Assembly (NCBI GenBank): GCA_041660165.1
Contig: JBAZWW010000002.1
Coordinates: forward strand, 132,074-196,073
DNA from: Patescibacteria group bacterium
Lineage (GTDB): Bacteria > Patescibacteriota > Patescibacteriia > UBA9934
Length of the DNA stretch: 64,000 bases
Direction of reading: 5' to 3'
This document shows, one piece after another, positions 8,957 to 25,769 of the stretch. Each line of letters starts with the position of its first letter. The stretch's first letter is position 1. Both the position numbers and the translations under genes were made by a program. The notes beneath the pieces are model-generated. The model did no database searches. It was not told where the DNA came from and saw nothing but the letters and a program-made list of their open reading frames with translations.

Positions 8957-9652
8957 ATGGCCAACGCAAAAAACAATCTAGCAAAACCAAAAGCGGGACC
9001 GCCAACCCAGCGGTATTTGGATATTGCGGAGATTAGGGAAGACTGCGTGGTCTTAAAAGACGGCACGCTCCGTTCAGTATTGCTTGTATCGAGTATTAAC
9101 TTTGCCCTCAAAAGCGAAGATGAACAGCAGGCCACCATTCAGGGGTACATGCAGTTTTTGAATGGGCTTGATCACCCTATCCAAATCACTATTCAGTCCC
9201 GCCGGATGAACATTGACGCCTACATGGGGAAGCTGAAGGCGCAGGAAGAAACGATTCCGAATGAACTGTTGCGCGGACAGATTAGGGACTACATGTCCTT
9301 CGTCAAAGAGCTGGTTGAGCTGGGTGAGATCATGCAGAAGCGGTTTTTCGTCATCATTCCGTATGATCCGGCTGAGGGCGGGAAACAGCACGGTTTTTTT
9401 CAGAAACTGTCGGCGGCTATTTCACCGGCCGCAATTATCAAGCTGAATGCCAAACAGTTCGGTGAGCGCAAAGAATATCTCATGCAACGCGTAGGAAATA
9501 TTGCCGGCGGTCTGCAGAGCATGGGGCTTCAGGCGATTATGCTTGATACACAGGGGCTGATTGAGCTGTATTACAATTCCTACAACCCTGACGTTTCTGA
9601 GGTGCAAAAATTGGCTCCCATTGAAAAAATCCAGGTAGAAACCCGTTTCTAG
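8957..9652 (+). CDS. VirB4/TraE-family ATPase, N-terminal domain fragment (231 aa)
   Basis: YLDIAEIREDCVVLKDGTLRSVLLVSSINFALKSEDEQ resembles the conserved N-terminal region of Gram-positive VirB4 (PrgJ/TraE-type). It ends TAG one nucleotide before the ATG of the next ORF, which is in a different frame. Confidence 0.6.
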   Translation: MANAKNNLAKPKAGPPTQRYLDIAEIREDCVVLKDGTLRSVLLVSSINFALKSEDEQQATIQGYMQFLNGLDHPIQITIQSRRMNIDAYMGKLKAQEETIPNELLRGQIRDYMSFVKELVELGEIMQKRFFVIIPYDPAEGGKQHGFFQKLSAAISPAAIIKLNAKQFGERKEYLMQRVGNIAGGLQSMGLQAIMLDTQGLIELYYNSYNPDVSEVQKLAPIEKIQVETRF

Positions 9653-9653
9653 T

Positions 9654-11567
9654 ATGGCTTTTAACATTGATGAACTGAAAAAACAGCAGACCGTAGCTCC
9701 CATCAGGAGCGAGCGGAAACTTTCCTCTGCGGAAATGAGATCCCAGGAAGAGCGGGCCACGCTTGAAGAAGAGCGCTCGTTCAGGAGAGGCACCGTGTCC
9801 GTTCGTGATCTTATTGCGCCGGCGGCCTTTGAAGTCCAGCCCACGCATTTGGTACTTGGCGATAGATTTGTCCGCACGCTTTTTGTGACTACTTATCCGC
9901 GCTACGTTGGTATTGGCTGGGGCGCGCCGGTTATTAACTTCAAAGGAACAATTGATATCGGGATGTTTGTGTATCCCGTGAAGTCAGAGGTGATCTTGAA
10001 GCAGTTGCGTGATAAAGTGGGACAGATTGAAGCGCAGATTGTGTCTGATAATGAATCCGGACGGCCTCGCGACCCAATTCAAGAAACGGCGCTCCGCGAC
10101 GTTGAGCAACTGCGCGATGACCTTACACAGGGCATTGAGCACTTTTTCCAATTTGCGTTTTATGTGACGCTCTACGCGTCAAGCAAGGTAGACCTTGATA
10201 AGCGGACAGAGGAAGTTGAGGCGATCTTTGGCGGAAAACTTATCTACAGCAAACGCGGGCTGTACCAGGCCGAGCAGGGCTTTAACTCCACGCTTCCTTT
10301 GTGTAATGACGAGCTGATGGTTACGTTCAACATGAACACTAGCCCCATCGCTAGTTCATTCCCATTTATTTCTTCCGATGTTTCAAGCGATAACGGCATT
10401 TTGTACGGCATCAACCGCCATAACAACTCGCTCATTTTGTTCGACCGCTTCTCATTGCAAAATGCGAATGCCGTGGTCTTTGCTACGTCTGGCGCAGGAA
10501 AAAGCTATGCGGTGAAGCTGGAAATCCTGCGTTCCATGATGATGGGCACGGATGTCATTGTTATTGACCCGGAAATGGAATACCGCCAGCTGTCTGATGC
10601 CGTGGGCGGGACGTACGTGAACGTTTCGCTGGCGTCTGAGGCGAAGATCAATCCCTTTGATCTGCCCAGGCCAAAGGGCGAGGAATCTTCCGTTGAGGAC
10701 ATTTTGCGTAGCGCCGTCATTACGATTAAGGGTTTGCTCCGCATCATGATTGGTAAACCCATGGGGGAGAAGTCAGTCCTTGGCTTCACGCCGGAAGAGG
10801 ATAGTTTGCTTGATCGAGCCCTTCTTGAAACGTACGCCAAGAAAGACATCACGCCTGATTTGCCAAGTTTGGCGGAGATTACCGATTATCCTATTCTGAA
10901 TGATCTGTTGGAAATTCTTGAGGGCATGCAGGGCGGTGAGAATTTGGTTGCTCGTCTGACAAAGTTTACAACGGGAACATTTTCCGGATTACTCAACTCA
11001 CCAACTACGGTGGAGATGCGCAATCAGCTGGTCATTTTTTCTGTGCGGGATCTTGAGGACGAATTGCGCGCCATGGCCATCTACACCATCGTCAACTACA
11101 TCTGGAACGTGGTGCGTTCAGAGCGGAAGAAGCGTTTGCTGACCATTGATGAAGCGTGGTGGCTCATGCAGAATGAGGACAGCGCCAAGTTCATTTTCGC
11201 CCTTGTGAAGCGCGCCCGCAAGTATTATCTTGGCGTGACCACCATCACGCAGGACGTGAATGACTTTTTGTCGAGTTCGTACGGCCAGGCGATTGTGACC
11301 AACTCCCAACTGCAGATTCTCATGAAGCAGTCATCGGCCGGCGTGGACGTAATTGCCAAGACGTTTAACCTGACGCAAAGCGAAAAATATCTGTTGCTTG
11401 AAGCCGGCGTGGGCGAGGGCATCTTCTTTGCCGGCCAGAAGCACGCGGCCATCAAGATTGTTGCTTCATACACGGAAGATCAAATCATTACCACGAATCC
11501 TGAGCAGTTACTTCAAATTGAGCGCGCCAAGGAAGAATTCCAGAAGTCCTTACAGCCACCCAAGTAA
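9654..11567 (+). CDS. VirB4/TraE-family conjugal-transfer-type ATPase, C-terminal ATPase part (637 aa)
   Basis: Walker A ATSGAGKSY, Walker B-like DVIVIDPE and LLTIDEAWWL, and the YPRYVGIGW region typical of VirB4. Confidence 0.75.
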   Translation: MAFNIDELKKQQTVAPIRSERKLSSAEMRSQEERATLEEERSFRRGTVSVRDLIAPAAFEVQPTHLVLGDRFVRTLFVTTYPRYVGIGWGAPVINFKGTIDIGMFVYPVKSEVILKQLRDKVGQIEAQIVSDNESGRPRDPIQETALRDVEQLRDDLTQGIEHFFQFAFYVTLYASSKVDLDKRTEEVEAIFGGKLIYSKRGLYQAEQGFNSTLPLCNDELMVTFNMNTSPIASSFPFISSDVSSDNGILYGINRHNNSLILFDRFSLQNANAVVFATSGAGKSYAVKLEILRSMMMGTDVIVIDPEMEYRQLSDAVGGTYVNVSLASEAKINPFDLPRPKGEESSVEDILRSAVITIKGLLRIMIGKPMGEKSVLGFTPEEDSLLDRALLETYAKKDITPDLPSLAEITDYPILNDLLEILEGMQGGENLVARLTKFTTGTFSGLLNSPTTVEMRNQLVIFSVRDLEDELRAMAIYTIVNYIWNVVRSERKKRLLTIDEAWWLMQNEDSAKFIFALVKRARKYYLGVTTITQDVNDFLSSSYGQAIVTNSQLQILMKQSSAGVDVIAKTFNLTQSEKYLLLEAGVGEGIFFAGQKHAAIKIVASYTEDQIITTNPEQLLQIERAKEEFQKSLQPPK

Positions 11568-11570
11568 GCT

Positions 11571-12128
11571 ATGAATAAGAAAGTGGAAATTGGGATTGCG
11601 GTTGGCATACTCGTCCTTCTGCTGATTGTGCTGGCGGTGCTTTTGCGCGCCAAACCGAATACGGTTAGCACGAAACCCGTGCAGGAGCAGATTCCAAACG
11701 CACAAACTAATCCCGGCAGTGTGCCGGTTGTTCCCGTGGTGGTCGCTCCCCCAGAACCGGCCGGACCGCAGACCACGGCCAGCATTTTTGTGGCCAGATT
11801 TGCCAGCTATTCATCTGAATCCGATTTTTCTAACGTGGCTGACGTGCTGGTTCTGGCGACTAAAACATTTCAGGCAAAACTGCAGGGCATTGCCCAGGAT
11901 CAGCGGACGCGAGATCTTTCCACCGCGTATTACGGCCTCTCCACAAAGGTAATTGGCAGTTCAGTTGTTCAAGAGGCAGAAACTTCTGCAGAGATCAAGC
12001 TTATGACCCAACAACAGGTATCTGTTGGCAGTCCGGGCAATACTACGGTGCAGTATAAGAACATTACTGTTGATCTGGTTAAAGAAGGAGATACATGGAA
12101 AGTGAACGGCTTTGCTTGGGAGAGCTAA
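11571..12128 (+). CDS. N-terminally anchored protein, possibly VirB8/PrgL-like with an NTF2-like domain
   Basis: Single N-terminal TM helix, a Pro-rich linker, and a ~130-aa C-terminal domain ending in ...EGDTWKVNGFAWES. The position after VirB4 matches prgL/virB8. Confidence 0.3.
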   Translation: MNKKVEIGIAVGILVLLLIVLAVLLRAKPNTVSTKPVQEQIPNAQTNPGSVPVVPVVVAPPEPAGPQTTASIFVARFASYSSESDFSNVADVLVLATKTFQAKLQGIAQDQRTRDLSTAYYGLSTKVIGSSVVQEAETSAEIKLMTQQQVSVGSPGNTTVQYKNITVDLVKEGDTWKVNGFAWES

Positions 12129-12736
12129 CCAGCTGGTTTTTAAACGCGGTCTTCCCGCGTTTTTGTCTGTCCTGCAAAACGGAAGGCGCTCTGCTTTGTC
12201 CGGCCTGTTTGCGTGCTTTTGATGATCGAGTATTCAGGGAGACTGACGGCCACCTGGCCCTCTTTGCGTACGGCAATCCGGCGATCCGAAATCTCATCCG
12301 CGCTTGGAAGTATGACTTTGATCAATCGGGATTCTCGACGCTCATGAAATTAGCTGAGCCAGGACACTCGACCATCAGAACTTTTATAGATAAGGCAGTG
12401 ATTATCCCGATACCATTATCTGATCTTCGAACAAGAGAGAGGGGCTTCAATCAGGCGGTCGTGCTTGGCGAGTGGGTTGCTGAGGTTTCGGGAAGTGAAA
12501 TGAGGGAGCTTTTAAAAAGGGGAGAAGCGAAGGGACACCAAGCTGAAAGAACTGAGGAGGAGAGAAAAAGAGCCATGGAGAAGAGTCCGTTCCTTTTAAA
12601 GGGGGGGAAGGTGCCAGAAAAGATTGTACTTGTTGATGATGTGTGGACAACAGGGTCAACCATGAGAGCGGCGGAGAGAACTTTGAAGGAAGGGGGAGTA
12701 AAAGAGGTGAAGTTTTTGACTATCGCGAAGGGGTAG
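12095..12736 (+). CDS. comFC: ComF-family phosphoribosyltransferase (ComFC)
   Basis: N-terminal CxxC...CxxC zinc finger (FCLSCKTEGALLCPAC) and the C-terminal PRTase motif KIVLVDDVWTTGSTM. The start is uncertain because it overlaps the previous gene. Confidence 0.8.
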   Translation: MESERLCLGELTSWFLNAVFPRFCLSCKTEGALLCPACLRAFDDRVFRETDGHLALFAYGNPAIRNLIRAWKYDFDQSGFSTLMKLAEPGHSTIRTFIDKAVIIPIPLSDLRTRERGFNQAVVLGEWVAEVSGSEMRELLKRGEAKGHQAERTEEERKRAMEKSPFLLKGGKVPEKIVLVDDVWTTGSTMRAAERTLKEGGVKEVKFLTIAKG

Positions 12737-20517: not shown

Positions 20518-20606
20518 TGGCGGAGGGGGCGAGATTCGAACTCGCGGAGGCTATTAACCTCGACGGTTTTCAAGACCGTTACCTTAAACCGCTCGGTCAC
20601 CCCTCC
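20518..20606 (-). tRNA. tRNA-Ser (anticodon UGA), with long variable arm and encoded CCA
   Basis: Minus-strand fold: acceptor GGAGGGG/CCCCTCC, anticodon loop cuUGAaa, long variable arm, T-loop TTCGAAT, 3'-GCCA. Confidence 0.8.
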
Positions 20607-20709: not shown

Positions 20710-20799
20710 TGGCGGAGAGGAGAGGATTCGAACCTCCGGTACCCTTTCAGGTACGCAGGTTTAGCAAACCTGTGCCTTAAGCCACTCGGCCACCTCTCC
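20710..20799 (-). tRNA. tRNA-Ser (anticodon GCU), with long variable arm and encoded CCA
   Basis: Minus-strand fold: acceptor GGAGAGG, anticodon loop ttGCTaa, long variable arm, T-loop TTCGAAT. Confidence 0.8.
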
Positions 20800-21630: not shown

Positions 21631-21707
21631 GCGCGCGTAGCTCAGCTGGATAGAGCATCAGCTTGCGGAGCTGAGGGTCGTAGGTTCAAATCCTGCCGCG
21701 CGCACCA
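21631..21707 (+). tRNA. tRNA-Arg (anticodon GCG by my hand fold, tentative), with encoded CCA
   Basis: Cloverleaf: acceptor GCGCGCG, D-arm GCTCAGCTGGATAGAGC, anticodon stem TCAGC/GCTGA with loop TTGCGGA, T-arm GTAGGTTCAAATCCTGC, 3' ACCA. Confidence 0.75.
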
Positions 21708-23672: not shown

Positions 23673-25769
23673 TTGGTATACTCCGCGGAACTTATGGCGT
23701 TCCACCTCAAGGACTCCATCGCCTCCGTGGCGACTATTGGCTCAGCCAAGGCAAAAGACTTTGCTAGGCTTGGCATCAATACTCTGCATGAAGCGTTGTT
23801 TGATTTCCCGTTCCGCTATGATGATTTGTCCCACGCGGTCATGATTGAGGACGTGAAGCCGGGGCAGAAGGTGACAGTCCAGGGAACTATCATGAGTATT
23901 GATAATCGCCGAAGCCAGAAGTCCTTCCGCATGATGGTGACGGAGGCAACTATCGAGGATGGGACTGGCGGGATCAAGGCCATTTGGTTTCACCAAGGAT
24001 TCTTGACGAAGATTTTGAAGCCCGGCCAAATTGTATCCCTCGCCGGCAAGGTAGATGACCGCTATGGTTTGTCACTCGTCAACCCTGCCTACGAAGTTGT
24101 CGGCAGTGGCAAGGTGGGGAAGGAGACGGGCAGAATTGTTCCTATTTATAAATTGACGGGCGCGCTTACTCAGAAGATTCGTCGGAAGGTGGCCGAGGCC
24201 TCTCTCGCCGCGGTGAACGAGGTGGAAGAATGGATGCCGGAGCGAATCATGAGGGAGGTTGAGTTAATCGGACTCGACCACGCCATTACTGAGCTTCACT
24301 TTCCTTCAGGCAATGAGGCAAAGGACAAGGCGCTCCGCCGTTTAAAGTTTGACGAGTTTTTCTTGCACCAGCTTTTGCACGCTAAGAGCCGTAGAGAACT
24401 CAAAACTCGCAAAGCGCCAAAGGTGCCGTTCCGTGAGGATTTGATGCGAGAATCGGTGGCGAATTTGCCATTTGCACTGACGGGGGCGCAGAAGAAAGCG
24501 GTCTGGGCGATCATTAAGGACATGAACCGTCCAGAGCCGATGAATAGACTGCTCGAAGGCGATGTAGGAAGCGGTAAGACCGTGGTGGCGGCACTTGTGG
24601 CTATGAACGCCTCACACGATGGCTGGCAGTCCGCTATGCTCGCCCCAACGGAAATTTTGGCCGAGCAACACGCGCAGACTTTGCAGAAGCTCTTTGGTGA
24701 TAAGCTGACCATTGGTCTCTATACTAGAACAAAACGCCGGGTAGGCGGTAAGGAAGTGACCAAGGCCCAGCTTCTCTCGGCCCTCAAGAATGGCGCAGTC
24801 AATCTCGTGGTCGGCACGCACGCGCTCTTAACTGGCGAGGTTTTATTTGATCGCCTCGGCTTGATTGTGGTTGATGAACAGCATAGGTTCGGCGTTCGCC
24901 AGCGTCAGGCGCTTAAAGATAAACAGGGGGATCTCGATGGTATTCCGCATTTGCTTTCAATGACCGCTACGCCGATCCCTCGATCATTGGCGCTGGTTCT
25001 ATATGGCGACCTCGACCGCTCAATTTTGAACGAGTATCCAGCCGGCCGAAAACCCATTCTTACCGAAGTGGTCGAGCTTGGTCGTGAGGAACCAATTTAC
25101 GAAATGATGCGCGAGCAGATGGATGCCGGCCGTCAGATTTTTGTGGTCTGTCCGTTGATTGAGGAATCAGACGCCCTCGGCGTAAACTCGGTGCATGAGG
25201 TCTACAAGGAATTCGTGACTGAGGGCTTCAAAGGCTATCGCGTTTCGATGTTGCACGGCCGGATGAAGACCAAGGAGAAAGATGACGTCATGCGTGCGTT
25301 TGCCAATGGCGAATCTGACATGCTGATTTCAACTACGGTGGTTGAGGTTGGTGTGGATGTGCCGAATGCTACCGTCATGTATGTTGAGGGCGCTGAGCGT
25401 TTTGGTCTGGCCCAGCTTCACCAGCTTCGCGGACGGGTTGGCCGTGGCGAGCACCAGAGCTACTGTTATTTGCATCCATCCGGCATCCTTGGCGATGTAG
25501 CCCACGAGCGCATGAAAGCCATTGAGAATAGCCAGGACGGATTTGATCTGGCTGAACGAGACCTCCAGCTCCGTGGCCCTGGCAGTATTTTTGGCACCGA
25601 GCAATCCGGCTTCGAGCAGTTCAAACTCGGCACCATGCATGACATTGACCTGATGAGCCACGCCAAGGATTTTGCTAAGGAGATGCTCGATGAAAGCCCG
25701 GATCTGGAGACGTTCCCGAAACTGAGAGAGCGATTGTATACGTATGTGAATGAGGTGCACTTTGAGTGA
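23673..25769 (+). CDS. recG: ATP-dependent DNA helicase RecG
   Basis: N-terminal wedge domain, DVGSGKT, DEQHRFGV, and a C-terminal TRG-motif region; 698 aa. Confidence 0.9.
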   Translation: MVYSAELMAFHLKDSIASVATIGSAKAKDFARLGINTLHEALFDFPFRYDDLSHAVMIEDVKPGQKVTVQGTIMSIDNRRSQKSFRMMVTEATIEDGTGGIKAIWFHQGFLTKILKPGQIVSLAGKVDDRYGLSLVNPAYEVVGSGKVGKETGRIVPIYKLTGALTQKIRRKVAEASLAAVNEVEEWMPERIMREVELIGLDHAITELHFPSGNEAKDKALRRLKFDEFFLHQLLHAKSRRELKTRKAPKVPFREDLMRESVANLPFALTGAQKKAVWAIIKDMNRPEPMNRLLEGDVGSGKTVVAALVAMNASHDGWQSAMLAPTEILAEQHAQTLQKLFGDKLTIGLYTRTKRRVGGKEVTKAQLLSALKNGAVNLVVGTHALLTGEVLFDRLGLIVVDEQHRFGVRQRQALKDKQGDLDGIPHLLSMTATPIPRSLALVLYGDLDRSILNEYPAGRKPILTEVVELGREEPIYEMMREQMDAGRQIFVVCPLIEESDALGVNSVHEVYKEFVTEGFKGYRVSMLHGRMKTKEKDDVMRAFANGESDMLISTTVVEVGVDVPNATVMYVEGAERFGLAQLHQLRGRVGRGEHQSYCYLHPSGILGDVAHERMKAIENSQDGFDLAERDLQLRGPGSIFGTEQSGFEQFKLGTMHDIDLMSHAKDFAKEMLDESPDLETFPKLRERLYTYVNEVHFE

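Follow-up and report, generated by a model that had tools for sequence, protein, structure and literature searches.

A conserved two-gene arrangement for a predicted VirB4-type ATPase in a chromosomal type IV secretion locus of Patescibacteria

The window analyzed here is a stretch of 64,000 nucleotides (nt) from a Patescibacteria group bacterium (GenBank assembly GCA_041660165.1, contig JBAZWW010000002.1, positions 132,074 to 196,073), and the element in question is a pair of adjacent open reading frames (ORFs), ORF A and ORF B, whose products correspond to successive parts of VirB4, an ATPase of type IV secretion systems (T4SSs). ORF A, which encodes 231 amino acids (aa), runs from ATG 8957 to TAG 9650–9652. 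A single spacer base (t, position 9653) separates it from ORF B, which encodes 637 aa, starts with ATG at 9654, ends with the stop at 11567 and lies on the same (+) strand in the +1 frame relative to ORF A (9654 − 8957 = 697 = 3 × 232 + 1). These coordinates and the frame relation, already given in a preliminary description of this DNA, were rechecked and confirmed on the sequence. That description left the choice among a recent inactivating frameshift, a sequencing indel and a genuinely split, possibly frameshift-regulated ATPase. ORF A and ORF B are very probably two functional genes encoding one VirB4-type unit of a chromosomal monoderm-type (MPF-FATA-like) T4SS, and the split is ancient and under selection. 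The two-gene VirB4 has already been published as a phylum-wide feature of Patescibacteria (Quinonero-Coronel et al. 2025, Microb Genom, PMC12102498). New here is the direct demonstration that the TrsD-like proteins, to which ORF A belongs, are the detached N-terminus of VirB4, a relationship given in the literature as remote homology only; the demonstration draws on relatives in which the two parts are joined, on matching folds and on a point of division common to the window and the staphylococcal plasmid pSK41.

Conservation of the split

A search of a 5.8-billion-protein collection with ORF A found 5,155 homologues. The best 120 of these are all free-standing proteins of 199–244 aa, 69–100% identical to ORF A and mostly labelled Patescibacteria, and in the closest relatives (73–90% identity) the protein has the same length as in the window. 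An exhaustive HMMER search with ORF A against cluster representatives at 50% identity returned 2,326 clusters; among the best 150, 148 are not full-length VirB4 and only two are full-length. For ORF B, each of the best 120 homologues has a length of 596–683 aa. The gene order was compared at 57 loci taken from species-representative genomes, with 35–81% identity to ORF A and spanning Uhrbacteria, Veblenbacteria, Komeilibacteria, Nomurabacteria, Parcubacteria and Saccharibacteria. At every one of them (57/57) the ORF A orthologue is a separate gene directly upstream of the ORF B orthologue. The comparison of fused with split orthologous loci that had been proposed as a check thus shows the N-terminal piece to be a separate conserved gene, the very outcome that the preliminary description had named as a refutation, and the genuine split is borne out by these loci, by thousands of homologues and by the selection on both halves described below. 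Many of the species-representative metagenome-assembled genomes that carry this Patescibacteria-type locus have the title 'uncultured Gammaproteobacteria bacterium' (L002, L005, L007–L009, L013, L017, L027, L030, L031, L041, L046 and L057), a label that is almost certainly wrong or a placeholder.

Compared with five close relatives, the nonsynonymous differences per site are 0.12–0.18 for ORF A and 0.08–0.12 for ORF B, and the synonymous sites are saturated, with a proportion of synonymous differences (pS) of about 0.7–0.8. The ratio of nonsynonymous to synonymous rates (dN/dS) is 0.02–0.09 overall, staying below 0.1 for both ORFs and at 0.02–0.04 for ORF B, which indicates strong purifying selection on both genes. 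These values bear directly on the proposal that virB4 was once fused here and has recently become a pseudogene through an inactivating frameshift. The existence of fused VirB4 proteins of the same family in a sister clade and the single base between ORF A and ORF B would suit such an event, but the split is present at all 57 orthologous loci down to 35% identity, every relative 35–90% identical within the split clades is also split, the closest relatives have an ORF A of unchanged length, dN/dS is low in both halves despite the saturation of synonymous sites, and ORF B has a start ATG of its own that is conserved in close relatives (M-A-F). A pseudogene is therefore exceedingly improbable.

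Junction and translation

The junction between the two genes is as variable as their order is constant. Among the 57 loci and the window, 12 kinds of geometry occur, from an 8-nt overlap to a 100-nt gap: a 1-nt overlap (TAATG or TGATG) at 21 junctions, an 8-nt overlap (ATGTTTGA) at 8, gaps of 1–5 nt at 23 (22 loci and the window), gaps of 7, 10, 32 and 100 nt once each and a gap of 17 nt twice. The relative frame of the two genes is +2 in 35 cases, +1 in 20 and 0 in 3. The nearest relatives of the window also differ from it, with gaps of 2 nt in L001 and L002, 4 nt in L004 and 3 nt in L006; the frame is +2 in L001, L002, L003, L005 and L007 and +1 in L004, and in L006 the two genes are in frame with an intervening stop.

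The letters around the junction leave almost no room for the idea that one gene was divided artificially by an error of sequencing or assembly, such as a homopolymer indel. The source is a metagenome-assembled genome, and runs of five and six A residues do stand at 9606 and 9624. However, the frame of ORF B is closed by a TAG at 9636–9638 and is open only from 9639, and both runs lie upstream of this stop, so changes in them cannot join the frames. Only the 14 nt from 9639 to 9652 could do so, and no run there exceeds 3 bases. The same proteins are, moreover, each recorded on two contigs (ORF A in NCBI, JGI, Logan and ENA; ORF B in NCBI, JGI and ENA), and the independent assemblies of 57 other species are split as well. 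The indel suggested in the preliminary description can accordingly be given next to no credence.

It is very unlikely that ribosomes undergo a programmed +1 shift at the end of ORF A, by which some fused VirB4 would be made and the ratio of fused to split protein regulated. A stop codon in the A site together with a +1 offset does recall recoding sites of the prfB type, and a +1 shift at TTC-TAG would yield ...ETRF-SMAF.... However, the segment 9639–9652 contains neither a slippery motif (X XXY YYZ), the heptamer for which a search before the stop had been advised, nor a prfB-like CUU-UGA, and no Shine-Dalgarno (SD) sequence stands just upstream, at 3 nt from the shift site. By standard decoding, UUC is read by a Phe tRNA with the anticodon GAA, which is unable to pair again on UCU, so that no slippery codon is available. 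The frame relation is not conserved either, since close relatives are +2, +1 or in frame and many other loci overlap by 1 or 8 nt. Regulation by frameshifting consequently finds no support.

The initiation signals suggest a way in which both genes are expressed. ORF A is preceded by a strong SD sequence, GAGGAG, with a duplex energy of −8.1 kcal/mol, and ORF B has no SD-like motif in the 20 nt upstream and a duplex energy of −2.9, both energies assuming a generic anti-SD. Non-saccharibacterial orthologues have the same SD pattern as the window; in saccharibacterial ones the SD lies inside the end of the ORF A orthologue. Because ORF B lacks an SD sequence and starts 1 nt past the ORF A stop, ORF B in this lineage is probably translated through termination-reinitiation, that is, by translational coupling to ORF A. 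Ribosomes terminating on ORF A would go on to translate ORF B, and the amounts of the two proteins would thereby be coupled.

The two polypeptides and their fused relatives

ORF B is predicted to be a VirB4-type T4SS ATPase. It matches NCBIfam NF045971 (VirB4-like, CD1110 family) with 333.6 bits against a cutoff of 325 and Pfam P-loop_TraG with 96.8 bits against a cutoff of 25.8 (E = 1.4e-27), and the C-terminal domain of Thermoanaerobacter VirB4 (PDB 4ag5) matches residues 241–613 with an E-value of 1.1e-46. A Walker A motif, GAGKS (residues ~280–284), and a Walker B motif, IDEAWW (within LLTIDEAWW), can be read from the translation. The earlier assignment of the ATPase core to ORF B agrees with these matches. 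The polypeptide consists of a linker (residues 1–45), the rest of the N-terminal domain (~46–240) and the P-loop ATPase domain (~241–613). It does not hold a complete VirB4 N-terminal domain, as the match to NF045971 covers profile positions 166–730 of 752 and thus begins only at position 166; the missing N-terminal part is supplied by ORF A.

ORF A itself has only weak matches, to the first ~90–230 positions of VirB4 profiles and to a 201-position TrsD/TraD model. Its score with the latter family, NCBIfam NF041427, is 25.0 bits (E = 1.4e-5), below the cutoff of 200, which makes it a remote homologue that falls outside the staphylococcal subfamily in NCBI's definition. No local Pfam model matches ORF A even at E-values up to 10. 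PF26593 ('TraC family protein') is precomputed on all of the best 120 ORF A homologues, a label that was not reproduced and whose family name is unconfirmed. Searched against the sequences of the PDB, the ORF A profile gave no meaningful match. An AlphaFold2 model of ORF A made from 83 diverse homologues has a mean predicted local distance difference test score (pLDDT) of 89.3. When it is compared with the PDB by Foldseek, the top 14 matches are all chains of R388 TrwK/VirB4, with probabilities of 0.97–1.00 and template modelling (TM) scores, normalised to the query, of 0.33–0.49; later matches are noise. The fold predicted for ORF A is that of the first part of the VirB4 N-terminal domain.

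Both parts of VirB4 are found in one chain in P0249 (797 aa, Candidatus Colwellbacteria) and P0267 (898 aa). ORF A matches residues 2–213 of P0249 and 8–220 of P0267, and ORF B, from residues ~43–46 on, matches P0249 from residue 226 and P0267 from residue 323, with 50% identity. A search with P0249 found ~117 further fused clusters at 90% identity (P0393–P0511), 775–807 aa long and 59–90% identical to it, so that the fused form, judged by these sequences, belongs to a whole Patescibacteria clade, Candidatus Colwellbacteria and relatives. P0267 is a separate fused form with a Pro-rich linker of ~100 aa. On such fusions of TrsD and VirB4 the searched text of Quinonero-Coronel et al. 2025 (PMC12102498) is silent. 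The predicted structure of P0249 (pLDDT 76.6) overlays full-length R388 TrwK/VirB4 over ~870 alignment columns with a TM score of 0.64 and an E-value of 9e-28, and the Pfam model TraC_F_IV, which describes the N-terminal domain, covers residues 169–394 of P0249, crossing the point at which the chain is broken in the window.

The fused relatives and the fold match of P0249 imply that ORF A and ORF B add up to a whole VirB4, divided within its N-terminal domain at a variable linker to which ORF A contributes its last ~16 residues and ORF B its first ~45. Two statements of the preliminary description need to be adjusted in this light. ORF A carries not the whole N-terminal domain but its first sub-domain, the remainder being residues ~46–240 of ORF B, with TraC_F_IV spanning the junction in the fused relative. 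The pair does correspond to one complete VirB4, but its 868 aa are somewhat more than the fused relatives have (775–807, with one of 898), because the break falls in the variable linker. The two polypeptides would reassemble non-covalently into a VirB4-like protomer.

An alignment that mixed fused proteins, ORF A proteins and ORF B proteins derived from the loci was poor at the ends of the fragments, and an alignment of fused homologues only was used instead. A neighbor-joining tree of the ATPase part, rooted at its midpoint, cleanly sets split and fused clades apart: a uniformly fused Colwellbacteria clade, a split ABY1/Parcubacteria clade with the window in it, a split Saccharibacteria clade and P0267, fused and on its own. 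Without an outgroup, and with two events required either way, the tree cannot order the fused and split states in ancestry. Two 'short' proteins of 600 aa, P0411 and P0507, nest inside the fused clade and at first looked like recent fissions. For P0411 this was rejected, since a gap of 100 N in its contig (region 1200–1700 of L058) removes N-terminal residues ~90–192.

The locus and its counterparts in known systems

The features of the locus and of the rest of the window are collected in Table 1. ORF A and ORF B follow the gene for a PrgI/VirB3-like protein in the order PrgI (VirB3-like)–ORF A–ORF B, with spacers of 2 nt and then 1 nt. By a hydropathy scan, the PrgI/VirB3-like protein has two hydrophobic segments (residues 18–36 and 43–62) and the 1011-aa protein has ~8 within its first 390 residues, so that T4SS inner-membrane components beside ORF B are represented by PrgI and a polytopic membrane protein that is a candidate VirB6. 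The 1011-aa, 529-aa and 185-aa neighbours have no Pfam or NCBIfam family match. The presence of comF and recG near the T4SS cluster is a published signature of ABY1-class T4SS loci, which typically have both genes according to PMC12102498, and it fits an ABY1-like organism whose closest relatives are Uhrbacteria. Further from the cluster, the window contains a putative TOTE conflict-system component, three tRNA genes, a series of minus-strand ORFs that may be a tandem paralogous family and a restriction-modification enzyme.

Table 1. Coordinates of the T4SS locus and of other features in the window
Feature	Coordinates	Strand	Remarks
M23 peptidase, 610 aa	1941–3773	+	Possible VirB1-like cell-wall hydrolase; T4SS-cluster neighbour
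Candidate VirB6-like channel subunit, 1011 aa	3863–6898	+	Role from position only; same tightly packed gene string
Soluble protein, 529 aa	6907–8496	+	T4SS-cluster neighbour
PrgI/VirB3-like small membrane protein, 146 aa	8514–8954	+	Pfam PrgI, 5.7e-09, 36.8 bits against cutoff 27
ORF A, TrsD-like, 231 aa	8957–9652	+	Detached first sub-domain of VirB4 N-terminal domain
Junction TAG-t-ATG	9650–9656	+	ORF A stop, spacer base, ORF B start
ORF B, predicted VirB4-family ATPase, 637 aa	9654–11567	+	Without first N-terminal sub-domain
185-aa protein	11571–12128	+	One N-terminal hydrophobic segment (single-pass); starts 3 nt past ORF B; possibly a T4SS accessory protein
comF	12095–12736	+	Close to T4SS cluster
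AEP-TOTE primase domain and ResIII/DEAD helicase, 748 aa	18162–20408	+	PF22548, 4e-78; TOTE conflict-system component
Two tRNA-Ser genes	20518–20606, 20710–20799	−	Just downstream of AEP-TOTE primase gene
tRNA-Arg gene	21631–21707		
recG	23673–25769	+	Close to T4SS cluster
Five consecutive ORFs, 566, 573, 683, 609 and 576 aa	25852–34823	−	No Pfam match at 1e-5
Single-chain Type ISP restriction-modification enzyme, 1044 aa	53006–56140	+	Type_ISP_C, 4e-90, and N6 methylase domain

The closest counterparts are the chromosomal T4SSs of other Patescibacteria, in which, as in the window, a TrsD homologue of ~230 aa lies directly upstream of a VirB4 of ~640 aa and beside PrgI/VirB3. According to Quinonero-Coronel et al. 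2025 (PMC12102498), no T4SS component is more abundant in Patescibacteria than the TrsD homologues (2,272 counted, 1,664 of them adjoining virB4), TrsD is remotely homologous to the VirB4 N-terminus, and the TrsD homologue of Southlakia epibionticum is essential. The T4SS locus of that organism, SEML1_0006–0019, is essential for epibiotic growth and has neither a relaxase nor a coupling protein (Wang et al. 2023, PMC10633639). The window, with comF and recG nearby, shows no substantive difference from these systems and is one more member of the group. For annotation this means that a start codon one base past a stop codon and in another frame can be mistaken for a broken gene, although across Patescibacteria an essential secretion motor is normally encoded in this way, under selection. 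Split VirB4 loci should be neither marked as pseudogenes nor 'corrected' as if they were errors of assembly.

A more distant counterpart is found in the staphylococcal plasmids pSK41 and pGO1 (MPF-FATA subclass), which, like the window, encode a small membrane protein, TrsD and a VirB4-like ATPase in this order. On pSK41 (NC_005024) the genes encode a 135-aa small protein, TrsD of 227 aa, a 672-aa DUF87/VirB4-like protein, a membrane protein and a CHAP hydrolase. When the ORF A profile (83 sequences) was aligned with pSK41 TrsD by hhalign, residues 15–211 matched residues 32–217 of 227 with a probability of 81% and an E-value of 1.2e-5. ORF B is colinear with pSK41 TraE/TrsE, its residues 52–602 matching TraE 36–617 with 25% identity and an E-value of 2e-43. 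Because the one match takes in nearly all of TrsD and the other is colinear with TraE, pSK41 and the window share their break point in the VirB4 architecture, with first pieces of 227 and 231 aa, although the similarity is very remote (25 bits for ORF A against a TrsD cutoff of 200). The two systems differ in their setting: the pSK41 genes belong to a conjugative plasmid, which also has a relaxase and a coupling protein, whereas the locus in the window is chromosomal, with no relaxase seen beside it. Following PMC12102498, this T4SS is probably used for something other than conjugation.

The single-chain VirB4 proteins, R388 TrwK, Agrobacterium VirB4 and F TraC, have the same fold and domain order as ORF A and ORF B taken together, whereas in the window the chain is divided within the N-terminal domain into two gene products. 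Solved R388 structures, as reviewed in PMC12857230, show N-terminal domains of VirB4 that are embedded in the membrane, join the protomers of each dimer and make contact with VirB3 and VirB8. By analogy, ORF A may be an adaptor that docks the motor, ORF B, onto the PrgI/VirB3-like protein and the membrane. A bolder reading, which is doubtful, holds that the break within the N-terminal domain is the boundary of a functional module and not a neutral fission, the TrsD-like subunit being a separately dosed or recruited adaptor between PrgI/VirB3 and the motor. If this were so, the split would permit a stoichiometry or an assembly order impossible for a single-chain VirB4, and repeated changes between the split state (ABY1, many Parcubacteria, Saccharimonadia and pSK41) and the fused one (the Colwellbacteria clade and P0267) would mirror differing regulatory needs.

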